Shown here one piece after another: positions 4,234-24,831 of a stretch of DNA of 64,000 nt. Below the pieces are notes generated by a model. The model saw only the letters and a program-made list of their open reading frames with translations, was not told the origin of the DNA and made no database searches. The translations under genes and the position numbers were made by a program. How positions within the stretch are numbered: position 1 is the stretch's first letter; each line of letters begins with the position of its first letter. Source of the DNA: an archaeon BMS3Abin17 (lineage in GTDB: Archaea > Nanobdellota > Nanobdellia > Pacearchaeales > GW2011-AR1); NCBI GenBank assembly GCA_002897655.1, contig BDTJ01000038.1, positions 66,689 through 130,688 of the forward strand, in the 5' to 3' direction.

Positions 4234-5571
4234 TTATTCTTTCTGTCTTGAGCCAGAAGGAGTTGATGAAGAAATAGTCTCTATAACTTTTTGGCAATTA
4301 TATAAGTCATTGAATAGTTCTAAGTAATCTTTTGCATGCCTTGTTATCAGGAAATTTTTTCTGACAATTTCTTTTCCATATTCCCCCATTCTTTTTCTTT
4401 TTACAGGATCAGAGAGGATATCAATAACATACTTTGCAGTCTTATGTATGTGCATATTTCTGTCTTCAATATTTACAGGGCTTCCATCCCCCTTTATTTT
4501 GTACCCTTTAACAAGATACCCGTTTTTCCCATGTTTAATCTGTAAGGGGATTCCTCCTACTTTTGTAGCAACTACAGGGGTTTTTTTCCATAAAGCTTCA
4601 CTTACAGTTAACGCAAAACCTTCTTTTAAGGATTTTTGCAAAACAACATCAGAAACTCTTTGCAGAGCATTTACTAATAAATCATCATGAACTCCAAACA
4701 AAATAATATCTTCACAATACTCTTCCTGCTCTGCCTTTACAACCCTTTCCATCATTTCCCCTTCTGGATCATCTGCCGCACTATTATAAGCCAGAATCAA
4801 TTTGCAATTAATTTTTTTCCTTACTTCTTTAAAAACATCTATGACTCCAATAGGATCTTTCCACTTGTCTAATCTGGAAATCTGTGAGATAATTGGTTTA
4901 TCAGTTGGAATGCAGTATTTTCTTAATATTTTCTTAAGCTCTTTTTCACTTAATTCTTTGTTTTTGTTGGTAAAAGGGTCTATAGAGGGGGGAATAACCT
5001 CATATTTCTTAGGATTTCCCTTAATAAATTCTTTTTTTGAAACAATTGTTTTATCATAATTAGCTGCAAGCCCATAAACATATTTTCCCAATATTTTATC
5101 CGGCTTGCTTGTGTCAATATGTTCTCTCCAAATCCATTTTGACCCATCTTCTTTTCTGTGTATTATGAGGTTTAATGGCTGAGGGTCATGAACAACAACT
5201 ATGTCTGAATCACAAGTATTTTCAAGGCAGTCAATTATGTGCTGGTTTAGTTCCCTTAATTTAGTATCATAAAATCCCTGATATTTCAGTATCTGAAGTT
5301 TTATATCCCCATGGGGTTGGCCCTGAAGGGCATTATGAAATGATTTTGTAGCATTGAAAAAATCTTTCTCCCCATTTAAAACAAGCCATTCTGTTTTTAT
5401 GCCAAGCCTGTTAAGCATAGGGACTAATCTTAAAAGAATTTCTGCTACCCCCCCTCCTTTATTTGTGGAGTTTATCATAATAATTCTTTTATCTTTTAAT
5501 CCTTCTGACAATTTATGAAGCTCATTAATTGCCTTCTCTCCCACAATTTCATTATAATCTCTTATTCTCAT
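4234..5571 (-). CDS. treT: Trehalose glycosyltransferring synthase TreT-like (GT4 family)
   Basis: 445 aa; N-terminus (INSTNKGGGVAEILLRLVPMLNRLGIKTEWLVLNGEKDFFNATKSFHNALQG) closely resembles Thermococcus TreT; GT-B fold C-terminal motifs. Confidence 0.6.
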   Translation of the reverse strand: MRIRDYNEIVGEKAINELHKLSEGLKDKRIIMINSTNKGGGVAEILLRLVPMLNRLGIKTEWLVLNGEKDFFNATKSFHNALQGQPHGDIKLQILKYQGFYDTKLRELNQHIIDCLENTCDSDIVVVHDPQPLNLIIHRKEDGSKWIWREHIDTSKPDKILGKYVYGLAANYDKTIVSKKEFIKGNPKKYEVIPPSIDPFTNKNKELSEKELKKILRKYCIPTDKPIISQISRLDKWKDPIGVIDVFKEVRKKINCKLILAYNSAADDPEGEMMERVVKAEQEEYCEDIILFGVHDDLLVNALQRVSDVVLQKSLKEGFALTVSEALWKKTPVVATKVGGIPLQIKHGKNGYLVKGYKIKGDGSPVNIEDRNMHIHKTAKYVIDILSDPVKRKRMGEYGKEIVRKNFLITRHAKDYLELFNDLYNCQKVIETISSSTPSGSRQKE

Positions 5572-5852
5572 TTTTTAAATATGAAAAATTTAAATCTCAG
5601 AATTCCACTCATCTATTTGACGAGTGGTCAGGCTGAAATTGCCACTCGTGGAATTCTGGCGATATTCAAGAACCAAGACTGTAGCATTACATGCCTCCAG
5701 TCTGTGACTGGTGGTTCTTGACAATTGGACTGAAATTTTAGTACCACCTTCTTTTTAAATATATCTTTTGCTTTTCTCTGCCTTTTTTTGATGGTTTTTT
5801 AAGAATACCAAATTATAAAAACTTATTTAAACAAGTTCGCACAATTTTTTAT

Positions 5853-6497
5853 ATGGAAAAGGGGATAAAAGCAGTTATTTTTGATGTTGGAGGGGTTTTG
5901 GCCCTCCAGAAAAATCCAAAAATTGTAAAACAAAGAGGAAACAAGACTTTCGGAGTCCACAAATATATCGCCAAGAAACTTGGCATAAGCATAGACCAGT
6001 GGTTTGATTCAGTTGATACTATTTATGCTCTGTCTATAGAAGGAAAAATATCTAAGAGAAAAGCTCTTAACGCTCTTTCTGAAAATGTAAAAATAAATGA
6101 AAAGAAAATGGAAAAAATTTTGTCCAATGCATATAAAAAGAATTTCACAACAAATAAGGAACTTTATAAAATAGCATTTAAATTAAAAAAACAGGGTTAT
6201 AAACTAGCACTTTTATCTGACCAATGGCACTTTTCTAAAGATATTCTAATGCCTAAAAGGCACATAAAACAGTTTAATGTATCTATTGCATCATGTAATG
6301 TTGGTATGAGAAAACCAAATCCCAAGATTTACAAACTTGCTCTTAAAAAATTAAAAACTCCTGCAAGACAAACTTTGTTTATTGATAACCAGATATGGAA
6401 TATAAAGCCAGCAAAAAAACTTGGAATAAATACAATCTTATTCAAGGATAATAAACAATTAATTAAAGATTTAAGAAAATTTGGGGTTGAGGTCTGA
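5853..6497 (+). CDS. HAD-superfamily hydrolase
   Basis: 214 aa; N-terminal DxG motif (VIFDVGGVLA) and C-terminal HAD motifs; divergent from treT. Confidence 0.6.
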   Translation: MEKGIKAVIFDVGGVLALQKNPKIVKQRGNKTFGVHKYIAKKLGISIDQWFDSVDTIYALSIEGKISKRKALNALSENVKINEKKMEKILSNAYKKNFTTNKELYKIAFKLKKQGYKLALLSDQWHFSKDILMPKRHIKQFNVSIASCNVGMRKPNPKIYKLALKKLKTPARQTLFIDNQIWNIKPAKKLGINTILFKDNKQLIKDLRKFGVEV

Positions 6498-7327
6498 TGA
6501 ATACTAAAGATTTCCTAGACAAAATAAAAATTGAATTAAAGATATCAAAAAACTCAGAATATACAATTAGGAATTACATTAACTCAAACCTGAGGTTTTT
6601 AAATTTCTCAAAAAAACAACCAGAAGATATAACAGAAGACGATATAAAATCATATCTTGCTGAGAATCTTAGTGAAAAAGCATCAACTTCAATCATTCTT
6701 TTCTTATCTGCAATAAAGTATTCATATCTTAATATTTTGAAGAGAGACCCAACTGCAGGAATTAAAAGACCTAAAAGAGAGAAAAGAATTCCAACAGTTT
6801 TAACAAAGGATGAGATAAAAAAACTCCTAAAGTCTTTTGATGCAAAAAAGTCAAAGTTAATGGTAAGTTTAATGTATGCTTGTGGAATGAGAGTATCAGA
6901 ATTATTAAATCTGGAAATTCAGAATTTTGATTTTGATGAGAAAATAGGGCATATTAGGCAAGCAAAAGGAAGAAAAGACAGGATTTTCAATATCCCTTTA
7001 TTTTTATTTGAAGATTTAAAAGATCAGGCAGATAAACAAAAGAAAGATAATCAAATTTATTTGTTTACAGGTCCGAAAGGGAAATTATCTCCAAGAAATC
7101 TTCAGAAGATTGTTTCAAAAGCAGCTAAGCGTGCAGAAATAAAGAAAGATGTACATTGTCACACTCTGCGTCATTCTTTTGCAACACATCTACTTGAAAA
7201 CAATATTGATATAAGAAAAATTCAGGAGCTTTTAGGACATGCTGACTTATCAACAACCCAGATATACACTCACATCTCAAAAGAAGAATTAAAAAAGATA
7301 AAATCCCCTTTAGATGAATTGATGTGA
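6497..7327 (+). CDS. Tyrosine recombinase/integrase, Xer-like
   Basis: 276 aa; C-terminal catalytic region HTLRHSFATHLLENNIDIRKIQELLGHADLSTTQIYTH (R..H..R..Y tetrad context). Confidence 0.8.
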   Translation: MNTKDFLDKIKIELKISKNSEYTIRNYINSNLRFLNFSKKQPEDITEDDIKSYLAENLSEKASTSIILFLSAIKYSYLNILKRDPTAGIKRPKREKRIPTVLTKDEIKKLLKSFDAKKSKLMVSLMYACGMRVSELLNLEIQNFDFDEKIGHIRQAKGRKDRIFNIPLFLFEDLKDQADKQKKDNQIYLFTGPKGKLSPRNLQKIVSKAAKRAEIKKDVHCHTLRHSFATHLLENNIDIRKIQELLGHADLSTTQIYTHISKEELKKIKSPLDELM

Positions 7328-7770
7328 ATATGGAAGACGAAATTGATAAATTAAAACAAGAAAACGAGAAACTTAAACAAGAAATAGAAGAATTAAAATC
7401 AAAAATAAGTGATAATAACAGAGGGGAAATTCAAAAAAAAGGAATGATGCAGAAGGCCTCTAAAGGAAACATCATGACAAGGCCTGCTTTTGGGTATAAA
7501 TTAGAGAATAGTAAACTAATCCCTGCAGAGAATTTTAGAGAAGTTGAAGAAATATTTGAGGAATTTCTAACAACAAATATTAGCCTGACTCAATTATCAA
7601 AGAAACATAATTTTTCGGTTAACGGATTAAAAAAGATACTGAAAAACTTTACATATATTGGAAAGATTAAATTCAATAACCAAATTCATGAAGGAAACCA
7701 TCAACCAATAATTTCATCAACTCTTTTTAATCATGTTCAGAATAAGTTAGAAAAAATAGGAATCAAATAA
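7324..7770 (+). CDS. Orphan 'Recombinase' (large-serine-recombinase DNA-binding) domain protein with N-terminal coiled coil
   Basis: 148 aa; GTG/ATG start overlapping Xer stop; region RPAFGYK...EVEEIFEEFL...HQPIISSTLFNHVQ matches the pattern of the PF07508-type recombinase domain (APYGY...EAEvVr.IF......HEPIIs.elFe.VQ) but no resolvase catalytic domain. Confidence 0.5.
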   Translation: MNMEDEIDKLKQENEKLKQEIEELKSKISDNNRGEIQKKGMMQKASKGNIMTRPAFGYKLENSKLIPAENFREVEEIFEEFLTTNISLTQLSKKHNFSVNGLKKILKNFTYIGKIKFNNQIHEGNHQPIISSTLFNHVQNKLEKIGIK

Positions 7771-7846
7771 AACTTATTCTGAATCCCCTTCAAATTCCAA
7801 AGAATGCCTACAAGAATTTGTCAGTGTTCAGAATAAGTTAGAAAAA
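7734..7846. repeat. Exact 22-nt direct repeat (tgttcagaataagttagaaaaa at 7734-7755 and 7825-7846) with a 13-bp inverted repeat arm (7771-7783) between the copies
   Basis: Read directly; first copy forms last codons of 7324..7770, second is intergenic before rps9 stop; ttcagaataagtt/aacttattctgaa can form a hairpin. Confidence 0.7.
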
Positions 7847-7860
7847 TGGCATACAATAAT

Positions 7861-8271
7861 TTATCTATAAGAAGTCTGTCTTTTACGTCTTGCTTTACTA
7901 TCTCCTGGCTTATATGTTTCTTTTCTTCTTACATCAGCAATAAGTAAAGACCAATCATAGTTATCAAAAGCTTCTTCAAGTTCTTTTGATTGAGCAAATT
8001 TATTGATTGCTCTAGCTAAAGCAAGTCTAGCAGCTTCTATTTGACTTTTTTCTCCACCACCCTTTACATTAATTTTAACATCAAAATTAATCTTACCAAG
8101 GATATTTTCAGTAATTCTTAAAGGCTCATCAATTTTTAGTTTGTCAAACATTTGAAGTGTTTTATAATCTTTATTATTAACAGTTATCTTTCCAGAACCC
8201 TCTGTTAAAACAGCTCTTGCAACAGCAGTCTTTCTCTTCCCAGAAGTTATTATTTTTTTTATTTCACTCAT
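7861..8271 (-). CDS. rps9: 30S ribosomal protein uS9
   Basis: 136 aa; GKRKTAVARA...GGG.KSQ..A..LALARA... C-terminal RRKRQTSYR; follows rpl13 as in archaeal operon. Confidence 0.9.
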   Translation of the reverse strand: MSEIKKIITSGKRKTAVARAVLTEGSGKITVNNKDYKTLQMFDKLKIDEPLRITENILGKINFDVKINVKGGGEKSQIEAARLALARAINKFAQSKELEEAFDNYDWSLLIADVRRKETYKPGDSKARRKRQTSYR

Positions 8272-8660
8272 TTTGAAAATTCCTTAACTTTTGAATATTT
8301 AATTGGCTTTCCTTTTCCTGCCTTTATTGCTTTAGAATCTTTAAATTCTTTTGGAATTTTATTATAACACCTTATTTTCTTAAAAGCAACTCTTCCTCTA
8401 CCTTTTCTATGCGTGGGAATCATCCCCCTTATTGTTCTCTTAACAATTTTCTCACTTACTCTTGAATGCTTTGGTCCTTTTTGGCTGCTTCCGACTCTAC
8501 TTCTCTTTGCCTCAAAACCTTCTTTTATATTTTTTTTATTTCCACTTATTATTATCTCTTCACAATTAATTATAGTTATTTCTTCTCCTTTTAGAGCTTC
8601 TTTTGCAACATAACTTGCTAATCTTCCTAAGATTGCTCCACTTCCATCTATTATTTTCAT
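8268..8660 (-). CDS. rpl13: 50S ribosomal protein uL13
   Basis: 130 aa; MKIIDGSGAILGRLAS... typical archaeal L13 N-terminus; operon position. Confidence 0.9.
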   Translation of the reverse strand: MKIIDGSGAILGRLASYVAKEALKGEEITIINCEEIIISGNKKNIKEGFEAKRSRVGSSQKGPKHSRVSEKIVKRTIRGMIPTHRKGRGRVAFKKIRCYNKIPKEFKDSKAIKAGKGKPIKYSKVKEFSK

Positions 8661-9025
8661 TTTAGTATTTTAACTCCTTTAGCACTTGGATTTTTTTTAA
8701 TCTCTTCAAGTATATTTAAAACTTCACATTTAGATTTTAATAGTTTTTCTCTTGCCCTTTCTGAAAAGCCTGTGGCAATAATTCTTATTTTTTTATTTAT
8801 CTCCCCCTGAGAAAGAACTTTCCCAGGAATTACAACGACCTCTCCTTCTTTTGTTTTTTTATCTATATCTTCAATATTCATATTGATTCTTTTTCTGCTA
8901 GGACCAGAGAGAATCTCAGATACCTTGAACCATTCTTTGTTTTTCTTAGCAGCAATTATAGTCTCGACTAATTCTTTGTTAGTCTTTTTCTTAAGTTGCC
9001 TTTCAATTTTTGTTTTGCTTTTCAT
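8657..9025 (-). CDS. rpl18e: 50S ribosomal protein eL18 (L18e)
   Basis: 122 aa basic protein; position upstream of rpl13 as in archaea; pattern VVVIPGKVL..G.I.KKIRIIA. Confidence 0.75.
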   Translation of the reverse strand: MKSKTKIERQLKKKTNKELVETIIAAKKNKEWFKVSEILSGPSRKRINMNIEDIDKKTKEGEVVVIPGKVLSQGEINKKIRIIATGFSERAREKLLKSKCEVLNILEEIKKNPSAKGVKILK

Positions 9026-11790: not shown

Positions 11791-12335
11791 TTTTCTCTCT
11801 CCTTTACCTCTTCTTGTTTTTCCTCAGATTTAGGTTCTTTGCCTTCTTCAGAGGGTACACCTTCAGGTGCTTTTTTTACTTGTTTCTTCTTTTTAAGCTT
11901 TAAAGTTATCTTGCTTTCAAGAGTTACAGGAACCACATAAGATGGGCTGTCCACAACTTTACCATCTACAAGAACTTTTCTGTGTGTAATCAATTGTCTT
12001 GCATTTTTTGGAGTTGTAGCAAGTCTTTTATTCATAAGAACTGTTTGAAGCCTTCTTTTTAGATAATCAGTTTTATCCAAAGACAAAACATCTGCAATAG
12101 AATTAACATTTAATCCAATTTTCCTCAATCTTTCAAATAAAGCTTCTTGCTCTTTTGGGTCAGCAGAGATTAATTTTTTAGCTTTTTCTCTCATGGATTT
12201 GATTTTTGCCTCTGCTCTCCATATTTCCTTTTTATTTTTTAGCCCGAATTCTTTTTTTATCTCAGCTTCTTCGTCAATTCTTGCCTTGTCAAATGGCCTT
12301 TTTGGCTTTGAATATTGTTTGTGTTTACGCTTCAT
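11787..12335 (-). CDS. rps4: 30S ribosomal protein uS4
   Basis: 182 aa; basic N-terminus MKRKHKQYSKPKRPF, S4 domain; operon position. Confidence 0.9.
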   Translation of the reverse strand: MKRKHKQYSKPKRPFDKARIDEEAEIKKEFGLKNKKEIWRAEAKIKSMREKAKKLISADPKEQEALFERLRKIGLNVNSIADVLSLDKTDYLKRRLQTVLMNKRLATTPKNARQLITHRKVLVDGKVVDSPSYVVPVTLESKITLKLKKKKQVKKAPEGVPSEEGKEPKSEEKQEEVKEREK

Positions 12336-12604
12336 TTTTGAGTTTCTCCGAATTTTTCTTCGTATTTTCCCGTATATTCTCGAGCTAAAAGTCCACTAGC
12401 TCCAGCAACATATAGTAATGCTCCTCCAAAACCAATAAGGTTTTTACCTTTCTTCATATCTTTTTTTATTGTTTCATAGGTAACCACCATGTTCTCTTTA
12501 TTAGTTCTGCTATTACTTAAATCCATATTCATAAATAATGAAGAACCAAAACCAAGTATTCCAACAACCATACATCCAACTAAAATCTTATCTAATTTTC
12601 CCAT
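12332..12604 (-). CDS. Small two-TM membrane protein inserted between rps13 and rps4 (hypothetical)
   Basis: Track ORF 12332..12637; start trimmed to internal Met (MGKLDK...) so it abuts the rps13 stop; two hydrophobic helices. Confidence 0.35.
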   Translation of the reverse strand: MGKLDKILVGCMVVGILGFGSSLFMNMDLSNSRTNKENMVVTYETIKKDMKKGKNLIGFGGALLYVAGASGLLAREYTGKYEEKFGETQK

Positions 12605-12605
12605 A

Positions 12606-13070
12606 TTATCTCTTAACCTTCTTTTTAATTCCAACACCCTTGCTTTTGTTCTTTCTGAAATTTGCCTTTGTTCTCTGCCCTCTTGTAGGCAAGTTACTCA
12701 TGTGCCTAAATCCCCTGTAACTCTTGATTTTCTTTAATCTCTTAATATCAAATTCTGTTCTTAATTCTAAATCAATGCTTGATAAATGCTTATCTTCTCC
12801 TGTCTCAAAATCGCCTCTTCTGTTCGTGAGGTATGCAGGAACTTTTGGATTTTTTATGAATTCAGTTATTTTTTTAATTTCATCATCAGTCAAAGAACCT
12901 ATTTTCCTTTTTTTATCAATTTTCAATATTTTACAGACAGCATTAGCAAAAGCCCATGAAACTCCTTTTATCTTTGTTAACCCGGAATAAATCGTCATAT
13001 TTCCTTCTATATCTCTTGATAAGATTCTGATTATTCTTTCTTCATGTTTTAATGTTTGTTTTGCTTCCAT
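12606..13070 (-). CDS. rps13: 30S ribosomal protein uS13
   Basis: 154 aa; ...RILSRDIEGNMTIYSGLTKIKGV...RGQRTKANFRK... typical S13. Confidence 0.9.
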   Translation of the reverse strand: MEAKQTLKHEERIIRILSRDIEGNMTIYSGLTKIKGVSWAFANAVCKILKIDKKRKIGSLTDDEIKKITEFIKNPKVPAYLTNRRGDFETGEDKHLSSIDLELRTEFDIKRLKKIKSYRGFRHMSNLPTRGQRTKANFRKNKSKGVGIKKKVKR

Positions 13071-14215: not shown

Positions 14216-14428
14216 CTATCTAAACCCTTCAAAACCCTCTAATTCTCTACGGGGTTCTGCAGCAGGTTGTGTGTGGCATAAATCACCATTCGCCCTTGCA
14301 TTCTCCATATTTTGGACAATTGCATTGAACATCTTGTCCCCCCAGACATTTTTCCCGCATTTATCGCAGAAATCAATTACACAATCACTAGAAATCTCTG
14401 CATTGCAATAAATACATTTTTTCACCAT
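14216..14428 (-). CDS. Zinc-ribbon domain protein
   Basis: 70 aa; CIYC...17 aa...CDKCG two CxxC pairs. Confidence 0.4.
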   Translation of the reverse strand: MVKKCIYCNAEISSDCVIDFCDKCGKNVWGDKMFNAIVQNMENARANGDLCHTQPAAEPRRELEGFEGFR

Positions 14429-14481: not shown

Positions 14482-14769
14482 TTAGATTTTGTAGTTATAG
14501 TTATTTATTGATTGCAAAAGAAGTGTATTTATATCTCTATAAGAAATTTTATCTTTATCTTTTAAAGACCCAAATGATACTTTTTCGAGGTTTAAAACTT
14601 CAAGAAGTTCTCTATTTGCTATAATTGCATTTCTTAAACCATTCATATCATGTATCTTTGCCCCCCCTGGTGAGCGTCTTGCTAAATAATCATCTACTTC
14701 CTTTAACAGATCAATAACATTTCTTCCATTCACTATTTTCTCTAATTTTTTTCTTTCCATCTTACTCAT
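14482..14769 (-). CDS. Hypothetical protein
   Basis: 95 aa ORF overlapping the permease start by 8 nt (operonic). Confidence 0.3.
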   Translation of the reverse strand: MSKMERKKLEKIVNGRNVIDLLKEVDDYLARRSPGGAKIHDMNGLRNAIIANRELLEVLNLEKVSFGSLKDKDKISYRDINTLLLQSINNYNYKI

Positions 14770-15973
14770 ACCTCAAGGCATCAGCAACATTTGTCTTAGA
14801 TGCCTGCATTGCGGGAAGAACACCTGAAACAGCCCCGATTATAAATGCAAATCCTAAACATCCCCCAACCAACCATAAGGGAAAACTTACTTGCAACAAA
14901 TTTGTTCCAAGATTATTAATCGCAATATACTCAATTGTTTTTCCAATTCCCATGCCGAGCAAGACCCCCGCAATCCCTCCAACTAAACCCAGCATACCAG
15001 ATTCAATCAAGAAAATCTTTAATATGTCAGAATTTCTTGCCCCAATAGCTTTCATGACCCCTATTTCCTTTGTTCTTTCTAAGATGGAAGTATACATTGT
15101 GTTTGCAATTCCAATTGCTCCCACTAATAATGAGATTGCCGCAATTCCTGCTAAAAATACAGTTATTATATTAAGTATATTTCCAAAACTTTCTAAAAGC
15201 TCTTCAGGAGTCATAACATCAAACTCCTGATTGTCTTCTGTCTCTCCCCGAGCCTTTCTTAATTTTTCTTCTGTTCTTTTTGAAACTTCAACAACATCTT
15301 CTCCATCTTCAACCTGGACCATTATCCAATCAACTCTTTCAGGAATGCCAAATAACTCTCTAAAACTATCAATATCCATTAAAATCATCCTGTCATCATC
15401 TGGATTGCCAACTAATTCAAGAATTCCCCTTACTCTTACTTTTTTATCATTGAGAGTTATTTTGTCTCCCACATTTACAGGCCTTCCAAAAAGATTTCCT
15501 GTTTTATGAAGATTTCCTAGAATTACAGAATAACTATCCCCTTTTTCAAAAAGTCTTCCATCTTCTACTGCAATACCACTTTCTGTGTAAACTCCAAGAC
15601 TTTCAGGAGGTGCTCCCCAAACCAGATGATATCTTGTTGTTCCTGCAAATTCTACTTTTGCATTCCCTGCCACAAAATAAGAAATATCTTTTACTCCTCT
15701 GACTTTTAATATAGTATCAATATCATCTTCTGTAAGGATTACACTTTCAATACTCCCAGGAGGTCCTAAAAAACCAGTTGCAGGCTGGACAAAGAATTTA
15801 TCAGCTCCAAGAAGATTGAATTGTTCTTCTACTGCATTTTGTAACCCAAGCGATAAACTGATTAATATAAAAATTGTAGCAATTGAGATAAATATGCCAA
15901 TCATAGTAAGCCATGTTCGCAGCTTTCTCTTTCTTAAATTCTTCAATGCGAGACTGAAGTAATCTTTTAACAT
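14762..15973 (-). CDS. ABC transporter permease, MacB/FtsX-type (N-terminal TM, large extracytoplasmic domain, C-terminal FtsX 3-TM bundle)
   Basis: 403 aa; MLKDYFSLALKNLRKRKLRTWLTMIGIFISIATI... and C-terminal ...MKAIGARNSDILKIFLIESGMLGLVGGIAG... FtsX-like. Confidence 0.8.
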   Translation of the reverse strand: MLKDYFSLALKNLRKRKLRTWLTMIGIFISIATIFILISLSLGLQNAVEEQFNLLGADKFFVQPATGFLGPPGSIESVILTEDDIDTILKVRGVKDISYFVAGNAKVEFAGTTRYHLVWGAPPESLGVYTESGIAVEDGRLFEKGDSYSVILGNLHKTGNLFGRPVNVGDKITLNDKKVRVRGILELVGNPDDDRMILMDIDSFRELFGIPERVDWIMVQVEDGEDVVEVSKRTEEKLRKARGETEDNQEFDVMTPEELLESFGNILNIITVFLAGIAAISLLVGAIGIANTMYTSILERTKEIGVMKAIGARNSDILKIFLIESGMLGLVGGIAGVLLGMGIGKTIEYIAINNLGTNLLQVSFPLWLVGGCLGFAFIIGAVSGVLPAMQASKTNVADALRYE

Positions 15974-16308
15974 TTTTTGAGAAGTTCCCCCATAGATTCA
16001 GCAATTAGTAAATCTTTACGACTAGGATTAGGGGGTGCAAGAGCTATCTCCTTAATGTGCTCAGGATTTATTACGCCCTCTTTTGGCAAAATATCAACAT
16101 GTCCTGAATAAGCCACCACAATCTCCCAAACATTATTTCTATCCACTTTTATCCTATAATTTACATTATAACCCAACTCTTTTGCTCTGTCAAAATGTGG
16201 CTTTTCCTGTTTGAGAGTGTATAATATATCTTGATAAGGGATTCCAAGTTCTTTCATTCCATTAACAAGTTCTATTTCTGTATTAAAAACAAATTCTTCA
16301 ATTTTCAT
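15967..16308 (-). CDS. Hypothetical cytoplasmic protein (between paralogous permeases)
   Basis: 113 aa ORF, start overlaps the upstream permease stop. Confidence 0.4.
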   Translation of the reverse strand: MKIEEFVFNTEIELVNGMKELGIPYQDILYTLKQEKPHFDRAKELGYNVNYRIKVDRNNVWEIVVAYSGHVDILPKEGVINPEHIKEIALAPPNPSRKDLLIAESMGELLKKC

Positions 16309-16311
16309 CTT

Positions 16312-17529
16312 CTAACTCCTCAAGGCATCCACGACATTTAATTTACTTGCTTGTATTGCAGGAAGAATTCCCGACACAACTCCTACTACAAAAGCAAATG
16401 AGACTGAACCAATTAAAAGAGGATAAGATATTGTCACAAGAAATAAATTTCCCCCAAGAGCCTGATTTGCAAGAGCAGATATTCCCATTGCTGCCCCTAA
16501 ACCTATCAAAGCACCCACAATGCCTCCAACCAAACCCAACATACCAGATTCAATTAAAAATATCATCAAGACATCTTTATTTTGTGCTCCAATAGCTTTC
16601 ATAACTCCTATTTCTCTTGTCCTCTCTAATACAGACGTATACATTGTGTTTGCAATTCCAACACCACCAACAAACAATGAAATCATTGCAATCCCAATTA
16701 CAATTAAATTGATTATATTTAGGATAGTATTTACACTTGAGATTGCCTCTAAAGGAGTTTCTACTGTGAAACTTTCTTCACCTATTTTTTCTTTTCTATC
16801 ATTTCTTAATTTTCTCTCTATTTCTTTTGAAACATCTTCTATTTCATCCTTATCTTCAACCTGTGCAATAATCATATCATACTCATTTTCAATATCCATT
16901 AAGTCTTCTAAATCACTTGTTAATAGCAGGACAATGCTATTCATCTGAAAATTACTTGTTTTCTCAAGAAATCCTATTACTTCAAAATCTTTCCCATTAA
17001 TTTTTACTCTTTTTCCAACTCTCATTTCTCTTCCAAAATCCGGTGTTGTCATGAAATTGTTCCCAAGAAGAACCATTCCATTGTCACCCTGCTTAAGAAG
17101 CCTCCCTTCTTTTGCTTTAAATTTAAGGCTGTCATAAACAAACTCTGCATCTTCAGGGTCATCAGGAATATCTGCAGCATATCCAAATCCTTTTACCCCA
17201 TTATATTCAAGACTTCCAACCCTGATTAATCTGGTTACAACCTTATCAACTCCATTTATTCCCTCGATAATTCTTAAATCATCTTCATTTAATTTTTCAA
17301 CAACAGCACTTCCAGGAGGAGCAAATCCAGTTTGTTTATTTTGTATAGTTAGCCGGTCAACAGATAAAGCTCCAAACTGTCCTGTAACAGCTTCTTTTAG
17401 ACCTGCACCCATTGATATAAGAGCCACCACAGCTGCAATACCAATAAATATTCCAAGAATTGTCAGCCAGCTTCTTAAACCTCTGTGCCTTAAGTTTCCA
17501 AAAGCCAGTGAGAAATAGTCTTTGAGCAT
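16312..17529 (-). CDS. ABC transporter permease, MacB/FtsX-type (paralog of 14762..15973)
   Basis: 405 aa; same N- and C-terminal signatures (MLKDYFSLAFGNLRHRGLRSWLTILGIFIGIAAV... / ...MKAIGAQNKDVLMIFLIESGMLGLVGG...). Confidence 0.8.
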   Translation of the reverse strand: MLKDYFSLAFGNLRHRGLRSWLTILGIFIGIAAVVALISMGAGLKEAVTGQFGALSVDRLTIQNKQTGFAPPGSAVVEKLNEDDLRIIEGINGVDKVVTRLIRVGSLEYNGVKGFGYAADIPDDPEDAEFVYDSLKFKAKEGRLLKQGDNGMVLLGNNFMTTPDFGREMRVGKRVKINGKDFEVIGFLEKTSNFQMNSIVLLLTSDLEDLMDIENEYDMIIAQVEDKDEIEDVSKEIERKLRNDRKEKIGEESFTVETPLEAISSVNTILNIINLIVIGIAMISLFVGGVGIANTMYTSVLERTREIGVMKAIGAQNKDVLMIFLIESGMLGLVGGIVGALIGLGAAMGISALANQALGGNLFLVTISYPLLIGSVSFAFVVGVVSGILPAIQASKLNVVDALRS

Positions 17530-17534
17530 TGGAG

Positions 17535-17885
17535 TTACCTCCTACCAAACCTATCTATAAGTTCTTTAATACCCTTCCAAGGATCCATTTCATTATGATA
17601 ATTCAACATTTCTGCTTTTGCTTTATCTTCTGGATTATATGTATGGCCTGTTCCATAAATTAAACTTGAGGGGTTATCTGCTCTAAGTTTTTTTACATTT
17701 TCAACACTCAAACCATTAACATTAATATGATATCCATCATACCCTTTTGGAATTCCCTTAATTTCACGACCTTCTTTTATAACTATCTTTAAATTCTTGT
17801 TTTCTTCCATTTCTCCTTCTAATAATTCTTTAATATCATCACAAAGTCCAGGACCTTCACTACAAAGAACAAATATACTTTTCAT
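17535..17885 (-). CDS. Hypothetical protein
   Basis: 116 aa ORF in same operon. Confidence 0.35.
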   Translation of the reverse strand: MKSIFVLCSEGPGLCDDIKELLEGEMEENKNLKIVIKEGREIKGIPKGYDGYHINVNGLSVENVKKLRADNPSSLIYGTGHTYNPEDKAKAEMLNYHNEMDPWKGIKELIDRFGRR

Positions 17886-18157
17886 CTTTCAAATCCAGCT
17901 TTATCAAAAATTCTTCTTGTTTCCCTTTCTCCGAAATCTTTAATGATTCCTTTAACAATATTGCCATATTTATTAACATTAATATATTCAAAGGCAATTC
18001 GTCTATAGGTTTTATATTCTTGTAATCCTTGATTAAATGTTTCGGGTTGTGGAAGTTCTCTTGAGGATAAATCTTTTAATGTATTAATCTGTAATTTCAT
18101 AAGTTCATCTAACCCCTCTTTTAATTTTCTTGGTTTAATTCTGTATTTCATCTTCAA
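17882..18157 (-). CDS. Hypothetical protein
   Basis: 91 aa ORF, overlapping stops/starts with neighbours. Confidence 0.35.
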   Translation of the reverse strand: MKMKYRIKPRKLKEGLDELMKLQINTLKDLSSRELPQPETFNQGLQEYKTYRRIAFEYINVNKYGNIVKGIIKDFGERETRRIFDKAGFER

Positions 18158-19020
18158 GCCTCCTTCTTAGAATTCTTTCTTCGTTTCTTTATTCTTCTAT
18201 AAATTATCCAAACAATAATTATAACTGCAACAATTCCATAAGTTGTGTAATTAGATTTCTTGATTAAACCCAATTCAAGAGCCTTTTCTCTTGAATAAAC
18301 TTTTACAGGAAGAGTTATTGTTTCTGTTTGCTCTTGATTATCAAAATCCTTGTAGGTTATTTTTGCAGTTATGCTTGCACTTGTTTTTTCAAAAATAACC
18401 TCAAATGTAGCTAATTCAAAATCATCAGAATCAATTGTTCCAACATATTCTTCCTTACTTGACAAAATTTCTAGACCACTATCTGACGTAATCTTAACAT
18501 TAACAAATCCAACATCACCTAATCCTGAGTTGATTATCTTAATAGAAACTTTTCCTTGCTCTCCAGCAACATTGTTTTTTGCTTCAACAGCATAGCTTAT
18601 TTCTGTTTTTGCACCCACAGTAACACCGATACTCCCTGTTCTTGTTTTTTCCTCATCATCTGAATCTAGGTAAGTAAGTGTATAGGGAATATTATAATCT
18701 CCTGGTTTAATATTAGAAGGAGCTTTTAATGTAAAGCTAAATGTTTCTTTATCATCTTCATTAATTTCATCTTCACTATCTTCAGAACTTCCAACACTTG
18801 TAAAAGAAGTATTTTCTAATTCTAATACAAGAGAAACATCTGTAACATCTCCATTAAGTGTGTTCTTGACTTCCACTTTTAGTGAAGCACTTTGCCCGGG
18901 ATACAACTCCCCCACTTCAACAGAATTAATTATCATTGATGATGCAAGGCTTATGCTTAACAATACTGCGAATATGCTGATAACTATTAAATTAAATTTT
19001 GTTTTCATTTTATCCTCCAA
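18154..19020 (-). CDS. Cell-surface protein with signal peptide, tandem Ig-like/CARDB-like beta domains and C-terminal TM anchor
   Basis: 288 aa; N-terminal hydrophobic signal, beta-rich T/S/V repeats, C-terminal TM followed by RRIKKRRKNSKK. Confidence 0.5.
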   Translation of the reverse strand: MEDKMKTKFNLIVISIFAVLLSISLASSMIINSVEVGELYPGQSASLKVEVKNTLNGDVTDVSLVLELENTSFTSVGSSEDSEDEINEDDKETFSFTLKAPSNIKPGDYNIPYTLTYLDSDDEEKTRTGSIGVTVGAKTEISYAVEAKNNVAGEQGKVSIKIINSGLGDVGFVNVKITSDSGLEILSSKEEYVGTIDSDDFELATFEVIFEKTSASITAKITYKDFDNQEQTETITLPVKVYSREKALELGLIKKSNYTTYGIVAVIIIVWIIYRRIKKRRKNSKKEA

Positions 19021-19330
19021 AACTACCTCTACTCTTCTTTTGTTCTCCTAAAACAATTTTATCACGTTTAAAGTAAAATCGGGGGTCTTCCTCTATTTTT
19101 ATAAGACTTTTTTCAAGGAGTCCTTCCACAGCCTCTCTTGCAGCGGTTAATCCAATATCTCCTTGACTAGTACGTCTTGCATCCAAACCCCTTGCCAAAT
19201 ATGCATCCATATAAACACTTCTCAAATCCTTAATAATCTCTTCAATCCTATGATATTTTTTAGGATAAGCCTTAACTAAAAGCAATGCTTCATCTTCATA
19301 TTCTGTTAATTTTTCATCCATTTTCTTCAA
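19010..19330 (-). CDS. Putative winged-helix DNA-binding protein
   Basis: 106 aa; first gene of the minus-strand operon; weak wHTH-like pattern only. Confidence 0.3.
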   Translation of the reverse strand: MKKMDEKLTEYEDEALLLVKAYPKKYHRIEEIIKDLRSVYMDAYLARGLDARRTSQGDIGLTAAREAVEGLLEKSLIKIEEDPRFYFKRDKIVLGEQKKSRGSFGG

Positions 19331-19423
19331 TTATCCTTTACATCAATCCTTTATAAATATTACTATATTGTTACCTCTCCACAATAACTACAGGATGGAA
19401 AAGTTTATAAATCCCAAATTTAT

Positions 19424-20101
19424 ATGAAAATCATGACAAAGAAATCAAAAAGCATTTACACACCTTCTGTAATAATAGAAGGATTTTGGGAGATTCCAGG
19501 AGTTAATTATAAAGGCAAAAATAAAACTTACAGGATTTTTGAAAAAATGGCTCCTGCAATGAATCATGATGATTTAACAGAGTATTCTATTAAAGAAAAG
19601 AAAGAAGGAAATCCTCATCTAGCAGATTCTATTTTACATTTTTCTATTTTTGATGCATCTTATAAACTTAGAAATAAGCACTCACAAGATATTGAAGGGC
19701 TTAGAAAATTTCTTCAATCAAGCCTTAGGAAATATCCAAATACTTCTACAAGAGTAGTTTATAATCCTCAAGAAGAATTAGATAACATAATTCATAATTA
19801 TGGAACTCCTGATGAATACATTTTAAGAGGAAATTTTGTTGGAGATGATGGTTGGATTAGAAACATAAAGCATAAAAAAGTTTTAACATCTCTTTTAGGG
19901 ACAGATAATATTAAAAAAATAAATGAAATTTCTCAATGGTTAACTAACACTAATACTTATCTTTGGAGATTAAATTCAAAACCACTACAAAAAGACGAGG
20001 GAGTTGTCGGGTTCGGCGCCTATTCCCTCAGGCTTAGCCTCTACTGCGACAGGTTTCCCGCTAATTGGTGTCCTGCTTTTCGGGTATTAGAAGTTAAATA
20101 A
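19424..20101 (+). CDS. Hypothetical protein (3-prime end may be spurious, overlaps GC-rich repeat copy 1)
   Basis: 225 aa ORF, no recognisable domain; last ~30 codons lie in a GC-rich segment repeated non-codingly downstream. Confidence 0.35.
   Translation: MKIMTKKSKSIYTPSVIIEGFWEIPGVNYKGKNKTYRIFEKMAPAMNHDDLTEYSIKEKKEGNPHLADSILHFSIFDASYKLRNKHSQDIEGLRKFLQSSLRKYPNTSTRVVYNPQEELDNIIHNYGTPDEYILRGNFVGDDGWIRNIKHKKVLTSLLGTDNIKKINEISQWLTNTNTYLWRLNSKPLQKDEGVVGFGAYSLRLSLYCDRFPANWCPAFRVLEVK
20003..20090. repeat. GC-rich 88-nt element, copy 1 (candidate structured RNA / element boundary)
   Basis: ~55% GC in a ~30% GC genome; ~80% identical to 20588-20675. Confidence 0.5.
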
Positions 20102-20587
20102 GCTTGAAGTTTTGCTCGCCGGCAGAAAATTATAAAAGATTTCTGGATTTAAGGGAACTGCAAGATAAATTCCACAATTTAGTATTTGACGCTTGTAAAT
20201 TTTGGGTGGTTGTTATAAGTAATTAATTAAGGAACAATTAGTGAAAGGGTGTTCGCTCTAAGATATTAAGAGTTAATAGATTACAATAATCTCGGAGATA
20301 AGTAAGGCAGTAATTATCTTCTAAAATTAGCTTAACATCAACACAAAAAAATTTAAATGAGTTTTTCTTGTTATTCTTGCTCAAAAAGTTTTCTTCCTTG
20401 AGCAAGAAGGAAACTAGATGGATTACACGCCATTTAACTAGCACATTATTAAGATTTATTTTAAGTCATGAAATTCAACCCCGACAATTAGTAGTTGAAA
20501 AATTATGAAAATTGAAGGAGTGGTGCTTCCTTTGAAGAAATTCACTGACTAGGAGACTCCCTATAGGAGAAGTTAATTGGCTATAAG

Positions 20588-20675
20588 TTGTCAGGTTCAA
20601 CGCCAATTCCAACAGGCTTAACCTCAACTGCAACAGGAATCCCGCTAATAGGTATCCTGCTTTTCGAATAGTCTA
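20588..20675. repeat. GC-rich 88-nt element, copy 2
   Basis: Direct imperfect repeat of 20003-20090; intergenic. Confidence 0.5.
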
Positions 20676-20701
20676 TCTGGGCATTTTTATAAGAAGAATT
20701 A

Positions 20702-21430
20702 TTATTTACAGCTCTTCATAGGCTGTTTTTTCCACTTATTCTTGATTTTTCTCTCAATACACTCGACTTTTCCGTCTTTGAGTTTGTATATTATTTTTGC
20801 GTGTTTTCTTGCTAATTCCGGATCATGAGTAACTATAATTATTGTTTTCCCTTTTTTGTTCAGGTTATCCAAAAATTTCATTACATTCTCACCAGTCTTT
20901 GTATCAAGATTTCCTGTAGGCTCATCTGCTAAGATAACTTCAGGATTATTTGAAAGGGCTCTTGCAATAGCAACTTTTTGCTGTTGCCCTCCTGAAAGCT
21001 GATTAGGATAATGATCCATTCTGTCTTTTAAATCAACAAGTTTGAGCAACTCTTCTGCCCTTTCTCTTCTCTCTTCTTCTGAAATTTCCTGAAACAGCAT
21101 AGGAAGCATAATATTCTCTTTTGCAGTAAGATTAGGAATTAGATTAAACTGCTGAAAAATAAAACCAACTTTCTTACCTCTTATCTGGGCTAAATCAGAT
21201 TCACTCAAATCCTTTATATCCTGCCCACCAAGATAAATATCTCCTTTTGTAGATAAGTCAAGACTTCCAATAAGATTCATCCCAGTTGACTTTCCACTAC
21301 CACTAGGCCCCATTATAGCAATAAAATCTCCTTCTTCTATTGAGATATTAACACCATCAAGTGCCTTGATTGTCTCTTCTCCCATCTCATAGTATTTTGC
21401 TGCATTTTTCAGTTCAATTATATTCTTCAT
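20702..21430 (-). CDS. ABC transporter ATP-binding protein (MacB/LolD-type)
   Basis: 242 aa; Walker [10 protein letters not shown], signature [15 protein letters not shown], Walker B ILADEPT, H-loop. Confidence 0.85.
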
Positions 21431-22264: not shown

Positions 22265-22960
22265 ATGAATTATGAAGAAATCTTAAAAAATGAAAAGAAG
22301 TCTAAAATTCTAGTAAGAATAGTTGCCCATTTAATGGGAGATGGTTGCGTGACAAAAAGATATTTTGCTTATTACAATAAAGATAAAATTTTATTAGAAA
22401 ATTTTGAAAAAGATGTTCTTAATCTTTTTAAGAAGATTCATTTCACTCGTGGCAGGACTAATTCTGGAACAAGTTTTTTAATGATACAAAACAAACCATT
22501 ACTCAATTTCTTAAAATCATTAATCAGTGATTATAGAAGCCATCATTTATATCTCCCTAAATTTATTAAGAATAAAGAATTTCAAAAAGAGTTCTCACAA
22601 TCATTTTATGATGACGAAGGATGTGTCGCTTTAAGGATTTTTAAGAAGACTAAGGAGACTAAGGAGACTAAGGAGATTAAGAGAAATGTAACCTTATCAT
22701 CTAATTCGTTAAAACTAATACAAGAGATTAAACAAATATTAAAAAACACTTTTGAAATAGAGTCAAATAAAATATCTAAATATGTCAAGAAAAGAGATTC
22801 AAAGATATATATCAATTATGTTTTATCTATTACCGGAAGAGATAATTTTGTAAAATTTAGAGATAAAATCAATTTTACCCACCCAACCAAAAGTAGAACG
22901 TTAGATAAGATGATTGCTTCATATATTAGAATAGTAAAGTTTAAAAATAAAGATAAATAG
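22265..22960 (+). CDS. Free-standing double-motif LAGLIDADG homing endonuclease-like protein
   Basis: 231 aa; motif 1 AHLMGDGCV, motif 2 FYDDEGCVAL; KETKETKETKEIK linker encoded by tandem 9-nt repeat. Confidence 0.7.
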   Translation: MNYEEILKNEKKSKILVRIVAHLMGDGCVTKRYFAYYNKDKILLENFEKDVLNLFKKIHFTRGRTNSGTSFLMIQNKPLLNFLKSLISDYRSHHLYLPKFIKNKEFQKEFSQSFYDDEGCVALRIFKKTKETKETKEIKRNVTLSSNSLKLIQEIKQILKNTFEIESNKISKYVKKRDSKIYINYVLSITGRDNFVKFRDKINFTHPTKSRTLDKMIASYIRIVKFKNKDK

Positions 22961-22968
22961 ATATCTTT

Positions 22969-23083
22969 GAAGACGGCCATAGTAGTTAGGAAACACCTGT
23001 TCCCATTCCGAACACAGATAGTTAAGCTAATTACGTCGTTTGTATTAGTGCCCTACAAGGTGCGAAGCATCGATGCTGTCTTT
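22969..23083 (+). rRNA. 5S ribosomal RNA
   Basis: Contains CCCATTCCGAACACAG and GTTAAGC motifs of archaeal 5S; helix I AGACGGC/GCTGTCT; ends approximate. Confidence 0.8.
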
Positions 23084-23230
23084 CACTTTTTCCTTTTTAA
23101 ATCTTGCTGCCTAATTTTTATTCTTATATAATGAATAATAATGCTTAAAAATAGAATTTAGATGATTTTAATAGGGCAGGAGTAATCAGTGACAAGTCTT
23201 TCGGGATTTACACTGGCTTGTTCTGCCTTT

Positions 23231-24235: not shown

Positions 24236-24289
24236 AAAAGGAGATATTTTTTTGTTTTATAAGTTTTATTTAGGAAGAATATAGATTAT

Positions 24290-24372
24290 GCGGAAGAAAG
24301 GATTCGAACCCTCGTAAGCACTAAGCTAACACGCCCTTAACGTGTCCCGTTTGACCACTCCGGCACTTCCGC
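24290..24372 (-). tRNA. tRNA-Leu, apparent anticodon AAG (type II)
   Basis: Hand fold: acceptor GCGGAAG/CTTCCGC, anticodon stem ACACG/CGTGT with loop TTAAGGG, long variable arm, T arm GAGGG-TTCGAAT-CCTTT; paralog of tRNA at 10439. Confidence 0.65.
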
Positions 24373-24704: not shown

Positions 24705-24831
24705 GCGCTTGTAGCTCAGTTGGATTAGAGCGCGTCCCTCCTAACTTCAAGAACGCAAGTTCTTGGGGTGCTCACGATTGCAGAGCAATAGAGACAGGAC
24801 GAAGTCGTAGGTTCAAGTCCTACCAAGCGCG
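24705..24831 (+). tRNA. tRNA-Arg (anticodon CCU) with ~52-nt intron at canonical 37/38 position
   Basis: Hand fold: acceptor GCGCTTG/CAAGCGC, D arm GCTC-AGTTGGATTA-GAGC, anticodon stem CGTCC/GGACG, loop CTCCTA|intron|A, T arm GTAGG-TTCAAGT-CCTAC; followed by T7 run. Confidence 0.75.

Follow-up and report, generated by a model that had tools for sequence, protein, structure and literature searches.

A conserved MacB/FtsX-type ABC module of DPANN archaea whose gene junctions are insertion hot spots for small, mostly ORFan genes

Introduction

MacB, LolCDE and FtsEX are the established representatives of the type VII (MacB/FtsX) superfamily of ATP-binding cassette (ABC) machines, and it is on knowledge of these systems that the mechanism proposed below is based. 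LolCDE, the lipoprotein-release system of Gram-negative bacteria, is encoded by one LolD-type ATPase gene together with two adjacent and paralogous genes for permeases of the MacB_PCD/FtsX kind. The Spr0693-0694-0695 system of Streptococcus pneumoniae (PDB entry 5xu1) has separate genes for ATPase and permease, which share their operon with a gene whose product is an extracytoplasmic partner. MJ0796 of Methanocaldococcus jannaschii (PDB 1f3o/1l2t) shows that the ATPase subfamily is established among Archaea; to our knowledge, this protein has been studied only as a model nucleotide-binding domain (NBD) and has no characterised physiological partners. Here, we describe a locus from the archaeon BMS3Abin17, a member of the DPANN group, that encodes a recognisable ABC module of the MacB/FtsX type, itself uncharacterised, with a pair of permeases like that of LolCE and an Ig-like partner protein. 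The locus lies in a stretch of 64,000 nt from a source contig of 158.8 kb; this whole stretch is referred to below as the window, and the same sequence occurs in metagenome-assembled genomes of Pacearchaeota.

The four core genes encode the ATPase, a CARDB-like surface protein, permease 1 (P1) and permease 2 (P2). Interspersed with them, and following the last of them, are five small open reading frames (ORFs) of 106, 91, 116, 113 and 95 aa. The original prediction for this DNA, which was made from the sequence, was that the small ORFs may encode unannotated accessory proteins of a dedicated machine for export or surface remodelling, with adhesion, the S-layer or lipoprotein release as candidate roles. 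By comparing the window with related loci, we have found that the four-gene module is conserved in DPANN archaea and that the same junctions between its genes are occupied, in one lineage after another, by different small genes. We consider it probable that these are lineage-specific and dispensable genes, which have invaded the junctions and ride on the transcription and translation of the operon.

Methods

To gather related loci (n = ~95), genomes were scanned with permease 1 and metagenomes with an alignment of the CARDB protein, and two contig look-ups were added. The proteins of the window were compared with all these loci by tblastn. Dereplicated loci were used only for the clustering of junction ORFs and for co-occurrence counts. 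Two conserved neighbours of the module, o85 (85 aa) and z70 (70 aa), served as small-protein controls. For the shuffle test, each stretch was shuffled 5000 times and the stop-free runs as long as the ORF in question were counted.

Results

Every ORF of the predicted minus-strand operon (19330 to 14482), and the ATPase gene beyond it, was recovered with the position and strand that had been given for it (Table 1), and the permeases, described as paralogs of about 45 % identity, were measured at 46 % identity over 404 aa (E=4e-107). The ATPase matches Pfam ABC_tran at 122 bits; its top family models are those for the MacB NBD, DarD, LolD and FtsE, and its closest relative in the PDB is MJ0796 (E=7e-78, full length), followed by Spr0694 (5xu1_A, 4.6e-73), MacB and LolD. 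Both permeases contain MacB_PCD (PF12704; 88.9 and 92.1 bits, cut-off 27) and FtsX (PF02687; 82.2 and 62.4 bits, cut-off 25.5) domains, and the closest solved permease relatives are 5xu1_M (2.7e-31) and MacB (5.8e-31). The predicted architecture of the two paralogs is that of four-transmembrane (TM) proteins with large extracytoplasmic domains, an N-terminal TM helix and a C-terminal FtsX domain of three helices. These domain tests place the module in the type VII ABC (MacB/FtsX) superfamily.

The module nevertheless falls outside the named LolCDE, MacAB and FtsEX systems, since it fails their curated cut-offs. The ATPase reaches 240 bits with the LolD model TIGR02211, under the cut-off of 307.75, the permeases reach 80.2 and 62.9 bits with the lolCE model TIGR02212 (cut-off 362.45), and the individual LolC and LolE models give less than 37 bits against cut-offs of 439-540. 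Likewise, the MacB equivalog NF007826 gives 119, 116 and 253 bits against a cut-off of 966, this model describing a fused NBD-permease whereas NBD and permeases are separate genes in the window, and the FtsX equivalog models give 40-51 bits against cut-offs of 225-255.

Gene order across the ~95 loci is fixed: o85, rpoN (on the opposite strand), ATPase, CARDB gene, P1, P2, z70 and the gene for L21e. Co-occurrence counts among 78 distinct CARDB loci identify a four-gene unit headed by the ATPase. The ATPase gene immediately precedes the CARDB gene in 30/30 distinct loci with enough upstream sequence, as expected of the cognate partner that it had been proposed to be, and a permease gene follows the CARDB gene in all 40 of the loci with enough downstream sequence, so that the notion of a dedicated module composed of ATPase, Ig-like protein and permeases holds across the clade. 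Orthologs of permease 1 are 58-70 % identical in relatives of the Pace-/Nanoarchaeota type and 43 % identical in the most distant loci, from Woesearchaeota; for permease 2, the corresponding values are 59-71 % and ~40 % (Woesearchaeota loci L012/L013). Where the sequence was long enough to count permeases (31 loci), there were two in 27 loci and one in four. Variants of the module with a single permease (L008/L019, L009, L025, L055, L062, L090, L094 and L095) indicate that a homodimeric form is also present in the clade. In many relatives, which are compact (among them L080, L058, L061, L067, L034, L053 and L087), the four core genes are 2-90 nt apart and no small ORFs are found.

The protein encoded between ATPase and permeases had been described as a secreted Ig-like/CARDB-like protein with a C-terminal anchor, and this description agrees with both family and structure analysis. 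Its first domain scores 28.2 bits with CARDB (PF07705), above the cut-off of 22.7, while the second reaches 21.5 bits with DUF11, under the cut-off of 24.6 for that family. The AlphaFold model (58 homologs, pLDDT 90.8) consists of an N-terminal signal/TM helix and two Ig-like beta-sandwiches, followed in the C-terminal part by a short helix, a TM helix and a basic tail; when it was compared with the PDB by Foldseek, only generic tandem Ig folds were retrieved. There are 232 DPANN homologs, the best 120 of which are named 'hypothetical protein' or something similarly uninformative, and literature searches for an association of CARDB/COG1361 proteins with MacB in Archaea or DPANN yielded nothing relevant. 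This family of Ig-like partners is widespread in DPANN and uncharacterised.

In the BMS3Abin17 genome, each junction of the operon has been invaded. The ATPase/CARDB junction holds a cassette of a diversity-generating retroelement (DGR), described below, as well as the 106-aa ORF. The 91- and 116-aa ORFs lie between the CARDB gene and P1, the 113-aa ORF between P1 and P2, and the 95-aa ORF after P2. These four junctions act as hot spots of insertion clade-wide, and the genes inserted there are mostly ORFans. A gap of at least 250 nt separates ATPase from CARDB gene in 31/80 loci, CARDB gene from permease in 40/81, the two permeases in 31/58 and permease from z70 in 22/35, whereas the adjacent ribosomal-protein/RNA polymerase operon in these loci has gaps of 200 nt or more at any one junction in just 0-6 of 28-35 loci. 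The 191 non-redundant gap ORFs fall into 154 clusters, 136 of which are singletons. ORFs in the four ABC junctions (n=149) have a median length of 115 aa, 18 of them have a TM-like segment and 123 are on the operon strand. When 132 junction ORFs were scanned for known families, few were matched, the families being a helix-turn-helix (HTH) family of five members, located between CARDB gene and P1, a Type II DNA methyltransferase and a DUF6036 nucleotidyltransferase. The last of these belongs to a 3.9-kb insertion between ATPase and CARDB genes in L010/L029 (L029 ~6299..8668, minus strand), i.e. at the junction that holds the DGR cassette in the window; there it is found beside a weak TrmB-like HTH gene, as in a toxin-antitoxin pair, together with other ORFs.

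Turnover at the junctions is fast, as pairs of closely related loci show. Loci L026 and L027 are 99 % identical and differ by an ORF of 130 aa placed exactly between two ATGA stop/start overlaps, and L052 and L053 differ by an insertion or deletion of ~800 nt after permease 2.

If the small ORFs were dedicated, unannotated accessory subunits of an export or surface-remodelling machine, their tight translational coupling within the operon would be accounted for, as would the enrichment of insertions relative to the neighbouring operon, the position of the 113-aa family, which is always between the permeases, and the retention of the 116-aa ORF at the same junction in L008/L019. However, a set of subunits should not be missing from the compact relatives, where nothing stands between the four core genes, and it should not be composed very largely of singleton clusters or differ between strains that are 99 % identical. 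Furthermore, no homologs of the 106-, 91- and 95-aa ORFs, three of the five in the window, were found in the ~95 related loci, yet z70 and o85, which are similarly small, were each recovered from ~40 loci in the same way; the missing matches therefore cannot be put down to small size alone. The small ORFs, which had been put forward as the accessory proteins of the machine, are thus not conserved in relatives, an outcome that had been named in advance as refuting the proposal, and we regard such a role as unlikely.

The junction genes might alternatively be cargo. According to this explanation, the junctions serve as landing sites for mobile or defence-type elements (toxin-antitoxin pairs, restriction-modification genes, retroelements), and most of the small ORFs would be selfish genes or genes of defence or anti-defence that have gone unrecognised and have nothing to do with the transporter. 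Several of the inserted genes have this character, namely the DGR cassette of the window, the Type II DNA methyltransferase, the nucleotidyltransferase beside an HTH-like gene in L010/L029 and the five-member HTH family between CARDB gene and P1, and two families occur at different junctions in different genomes. Nonetheless, the five small ORFs of the window gave no significant match in PADLOC or PHROGs (all E > 0.003), no integrase, transposase or attC-like spacers were found between them, genes that abut or overlap leave no room for a recombination site, and the base composition of the small ORFs resembles that of the core genes. We therefore consider this explanation improbable.

The small ORFs are real genes that are tightly coupled to the operon. 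Each fills the gap between its neighbours, and in sequence of 31 % G+C a stop-free run of equal length arose in only 0-2 of the 5000 shuffles (106-aa ORF, 1; 91-aa ORF, 2; 95-aa ORF, 1). All genes of the operon had been said to have overlapping start and stop codons, which, when the likely ATG starts are used, proved correct for two junctions, those between the 91- and 116-aa ORFs (ATGA) and between the 113-aa ORF and permease 2 (7 nt); at the five others the genes are 1-5 nt apart, and a GGAGG-like motif is found upstream at four of these five. Full-length orthologs that share 57-67 % amino-acid identity exist for the 116- and 113-aa ORFs, and for the 113-aa protein a confident AlphaFold2 fold was obtained from only four sequences. 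The opposite possibility, that they are not genes but chance frames in expanded intergenic spacers, draws on the lack of any homolog for three of the five wherever this was tested, and of a family match for all of them. Chance frames would, however, be expected neither to span their gaps fully, nor to lie on the operon strand as consistently as the junction ORFs of the clade do (123/149), nor to have orthologs and a confident fold, and this possibility is very improbable.

Neither the five small ORFs nor the DGR target protein gave a significant match in searches of Pfam, NCBIfam, PHROGs, PADLOC and PDB sequences, so that the winged-HTH identity tentatively assigned to the 106-aa ORF finds no support. 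The 116-aa ORF occurs in one other lineage among the related loci (L008/L019, 57 % identity), and an exhaustive phmmer search of 1.84e9 representative proteins retrieved only three matches. Comparison of the window with strain L001 revealed three differing positions over 11.8 kb, two of which (17964 and 17988) are in the 276 nt of the 91-aa ORF, whose products differ by two residues beyond the start codon; this sequence difference hints at relaxed or diversifying selection on the 91-aa ORF.

Among the junction families, that of the 113-aa ORF is the largest, and 9/9 of its non-redundant members are situated between two permeases. In tblastn the window ORF gives weak matches in a few lineages, and on a rough permease tree the members of the family are patchily distributed and interleaved with compact loci. 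The family is patchy and dispensable. Its consensus includes the motif HEKxHxDKAxELGY and, further downstream, a conserved Glu; in the copy of the window, QEKPH stands in place of HExxH, which is also absent from three other members. Marginal PDB matches of the family profile to ribosomal protein L15e (E ~0.8-1.4, with 'DKARxLGY' in common) were treated as due to chance.

Diversity-generating retroelements, of which the element of Bordetella phage BPP-1 is the prototype, have been reported in DPANN archaea. The region separating the ATPase gene from the other genes of the operon had been noted as a GC-rich repeat region; it does separate them, and in fact consists of the template repeat (TR) and variable repeat (VR) of a DGR together with an RT-16 RNA. 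As in other DGRs, the VR is at the 3' end of the target gene, a reverse transcriptase-associated RNA lies beside the TR (here directly 5' of it and abutting) and the mismatches between the repeats are adenine-specific, always with A in the TR and another base in the target ORF (13/13 in an 81-nt BLAST core). In a natural variant (P0011), all nine residue changes fall within residues 198-215 of the target protein and none within residues 1-197, and this restriction of variation to the VR indicates that the element has been active. Unlike typical DGRs, the element has no reverse transcriptase or Avd-like gene within the 64 kb of the window; neither the ORF listing nor scans for YxDD and GxxxSQ motifs revealed a reverse transcriptase there, and one may lie elsewhere on the contig. 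A search of all related loci for DGR-like repeats revealed them in the window strain only.

The DGR cassette and the 106-aa ORF are a lineage-specific insertion at the junction of ATPase and CARDB genes, and this insertion has detached the ATPase from the rest of the operon. In the 93-nt divergent spacer, a TATA-like sequence, TTTATAAA, can be read ~25-30 nt upstream of the 106-aa ORF. This element would supply a new promoter to the downstream genes, and the 106-aa ORF is now the predicted first gene of the CARDB-permease transcription unit.

Table 1. Coordinates of the ABC locus, the associated retroelement and other features in the window
Feature	Coordinates	Strand	Remarks
S13/S4 ORF	12332..12637	-	101 aa in the longest frame; 90 aa according to gene callers
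z70, Cys-rich zinc-ribbon-like 70-aa protein	14216..14428	-	Downstream edge of conserved synteny, before L21e
95-aa ORF	14482..14769	-	Likely ATG at 14760, giving 92 aa
Permease 2	14762..15973	-	403 aa; paralog of permease 1
113-aa ORF	15967..16308	-	Family between the two permeases
Permease 1	16312..17529	-	405 aa; MacB_PCD + FtsX
116-aa ORF	17535..17885	-	Same junction in L008/L019
91-aa ORF	17882..18157	-	Likely ATG at 18151, giving 89 aa
CARDB-like membrane-anchored surface protein	18154..19020	-	288 aa; likely ATG at 19008, giving 284 aa
106-aa ORF	19010..19330	-	Likely ATG at 19321, giving 103 aa
DGR target gene, 225 aa	19424..20101	+	VR ~20002..20088 at the 3' end; no family match
RT-16 structured RNA (Rfam RF03019)	20381..20589	+	cmscan 90.3 bits, gathering score 50, full model
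DGR template repeat (TR)	20586..20672	+	Aligns with the 3' end of ORF 19424..20101
ABC ATPase (NBD), LolD/MacB/MJ0796 type	20702..21430	-	242 aa; Pfam ABC_tran
LAGLIDADG_3-domain ORF	22265..22960	+	231 aa; Pfam 41 bits
5S rRNA gene	22969..23084	+	
tRNA-Leu(aag)	24289..24372	-	ARAGORN
tRNA, probably intron-containing	24705..24831	+	Rfam match of 127 nt

Some further features of the window were recorded. z70, which is always encoded between permease 2 and L21e and has a CxxC...CxxC pattern, matches no Pfam family above threshold and is a small DPANN protein that is conserved but unannotated. In the ribosomal operon, an ORF with a hydrophobic, TM-like core lies between the genes for S13 and S4, which abut in most relatives (for example L098, S13 4821-5291 and S4 5288-5809); this is an insertion of the same lineage-specific kind, seen in only three distinct lineages of ~28. 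On the other side of the locus, an ORF with a LAGLIDADG_3 domain ends 8 nt before the 5S rRNA gene, and has homologs in L014 (67 % identity, ~230 nt from o85 and on the opposite strand) and in L046 (57 %). The tRNA-Leu(aag) gene called by ARAGORN is absent from the Rfam list, and the probably intron-containing tRNA in the Rfam list was missed by ARAGORN.

Discussion

We have shown that the window encodes a type VII ABC module of four genes, conserved across ~95 DPANN loci, and that the junctions of this module hold small genes which are tightly coupled to the operon and differ from lineage to lineage. Taken together, the compact loci, the predominance of singleton clusters and the differences between nearly identical strains argue that the junctions have been invaded by lineage-specific, dispensable genes that use the transcription and translation of the operon, and this is, in our judgement, the probable explanation. 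When considering this conclusion, it is important that a number of points which weigh against it are taken into account. The related loci are metagenome-derived and their contigs fragmentary, the gap tallies for both the ABC and the ribosomal operons include near-identical loci, and the neighbour-joining permease tree with which patchiness was judged is a rough one. As homology searches are insensitive for small proteins that evolve fast, some singletons may be unrecognised relatives of each other. That insertions are far more numerous here than in the ribosomal operon could mean a functional link rather than tolerance, and the 113-aa family, bound to one position, could be a facultative accessory factor. 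As regards the machine itself, the pairing of P1 with P2 as a heterodimer, the part assigned to the Ig-like protein and mechanotransmission rest on analogy with bacterial systems.

How the junction genes are gained and lost may be suggested by their distribution. Because families keep to one junction but are patchily distributed among the loci, we infer that genes are exchanged by recombination in the conserved flanking genes and lost by deletion between the repeated stop/start junctions. In this respect the locus resembles the 'morons' of phages and accessory-gene islands between conserved genes, in which unrelated, dispensable genes likewise occupy fixed spots between conserved neighbours and vary in content among close relatives. 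It differs from them in that the inserts have no visible promoter or terminator of their own and are spliced in through overlapping or abutting stop and start codons, and in that the host is a cellular archaeon. Integron cassettes were considered as a further model and rejected, as genes that overlap or are 1-5 nt apart leave no room for attC and there is no integrase at the locus.

There is a further possibility. Rather than a passive landing pad, the operon could be a dedicated expression platform for a fast-changing set of small proteins whose action is exerted on the surface ABC machine or jointly with it and which, with the DGR-diversified protein inserted beside the operon, form a hypervariable locus for host interaction. 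We think this unlikely, but if it is true, junction-specific pools of genes, such as the 113-aa family with its HExxH-bearing members, would be swapped between episymbiotic DPANN lineages by way of the conserved flanking genes.

With respect to the module, which we take to be probably a host for invading genes, the gene set itself gives some indication of how it may work. One LolD-type ATPase gene with two paralogous permease genes is the gene set of LolCDE. Such a set implies that the type VII ABC machine is heterodimeric and acts outside the membrane, and we infer that the module operates in a similar manner. Our current working model is that a dimer of the ATPase powers a heterodimer of P1 and P2 in the fashion of LolC and LolE, and that the resulting motion is relayed through the membrane helices to the extracytoplasmic domains (mechanotransmission). 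As movement would be passed to domains outside the cell, the work would be performed at the cell surface rather than consist in the pumping of a cytoplasmic solute. Because its gene has the operon position of the adaptor genes in bacterial systems, the Ig-like protein most likely serves the machine as a partner or client on the extracytoplasmic side.

There are also clear differences from the bacterial systems. The host of the module is an archaeon, which has no outer membrane, and the LolCDE-like genes are accompanied by a gene for a bitopic, Ig-like partner; no LolA/LolB-like gene, as in the chaperone pathway to an outer membrane, is present among the annotated neighbours of the locus, although no direct test for one was made. 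Compared with the MacAB and Spr systems, there are two different permeases here instead of a homodimer. No protein of the operon matches the HlyD/membrane-fusion protein family in Pfam or NCBIfam, and the place of MacA is taken by the tandem Ig-like protein with its C-terminal anchor.

For the annotation of such genomes, these results are a warning that small ORFs coupled to an operon should not be taken as subunits of its machine unless there is comparative evidence. The presence of more than 130 apparently unrelated small genes at four fixed junctions provides a natural case of new genes entering an operon, and bears on the origin and retention of ORFan genes in reduced genomes. The module itself is among the few membrane machines that are conserved in these very small genomes, where it adjoins core information-processing genes in fixed synteny, and learning what it does would therefore be worthwhile for an understanding of the cell surface in DPANN.

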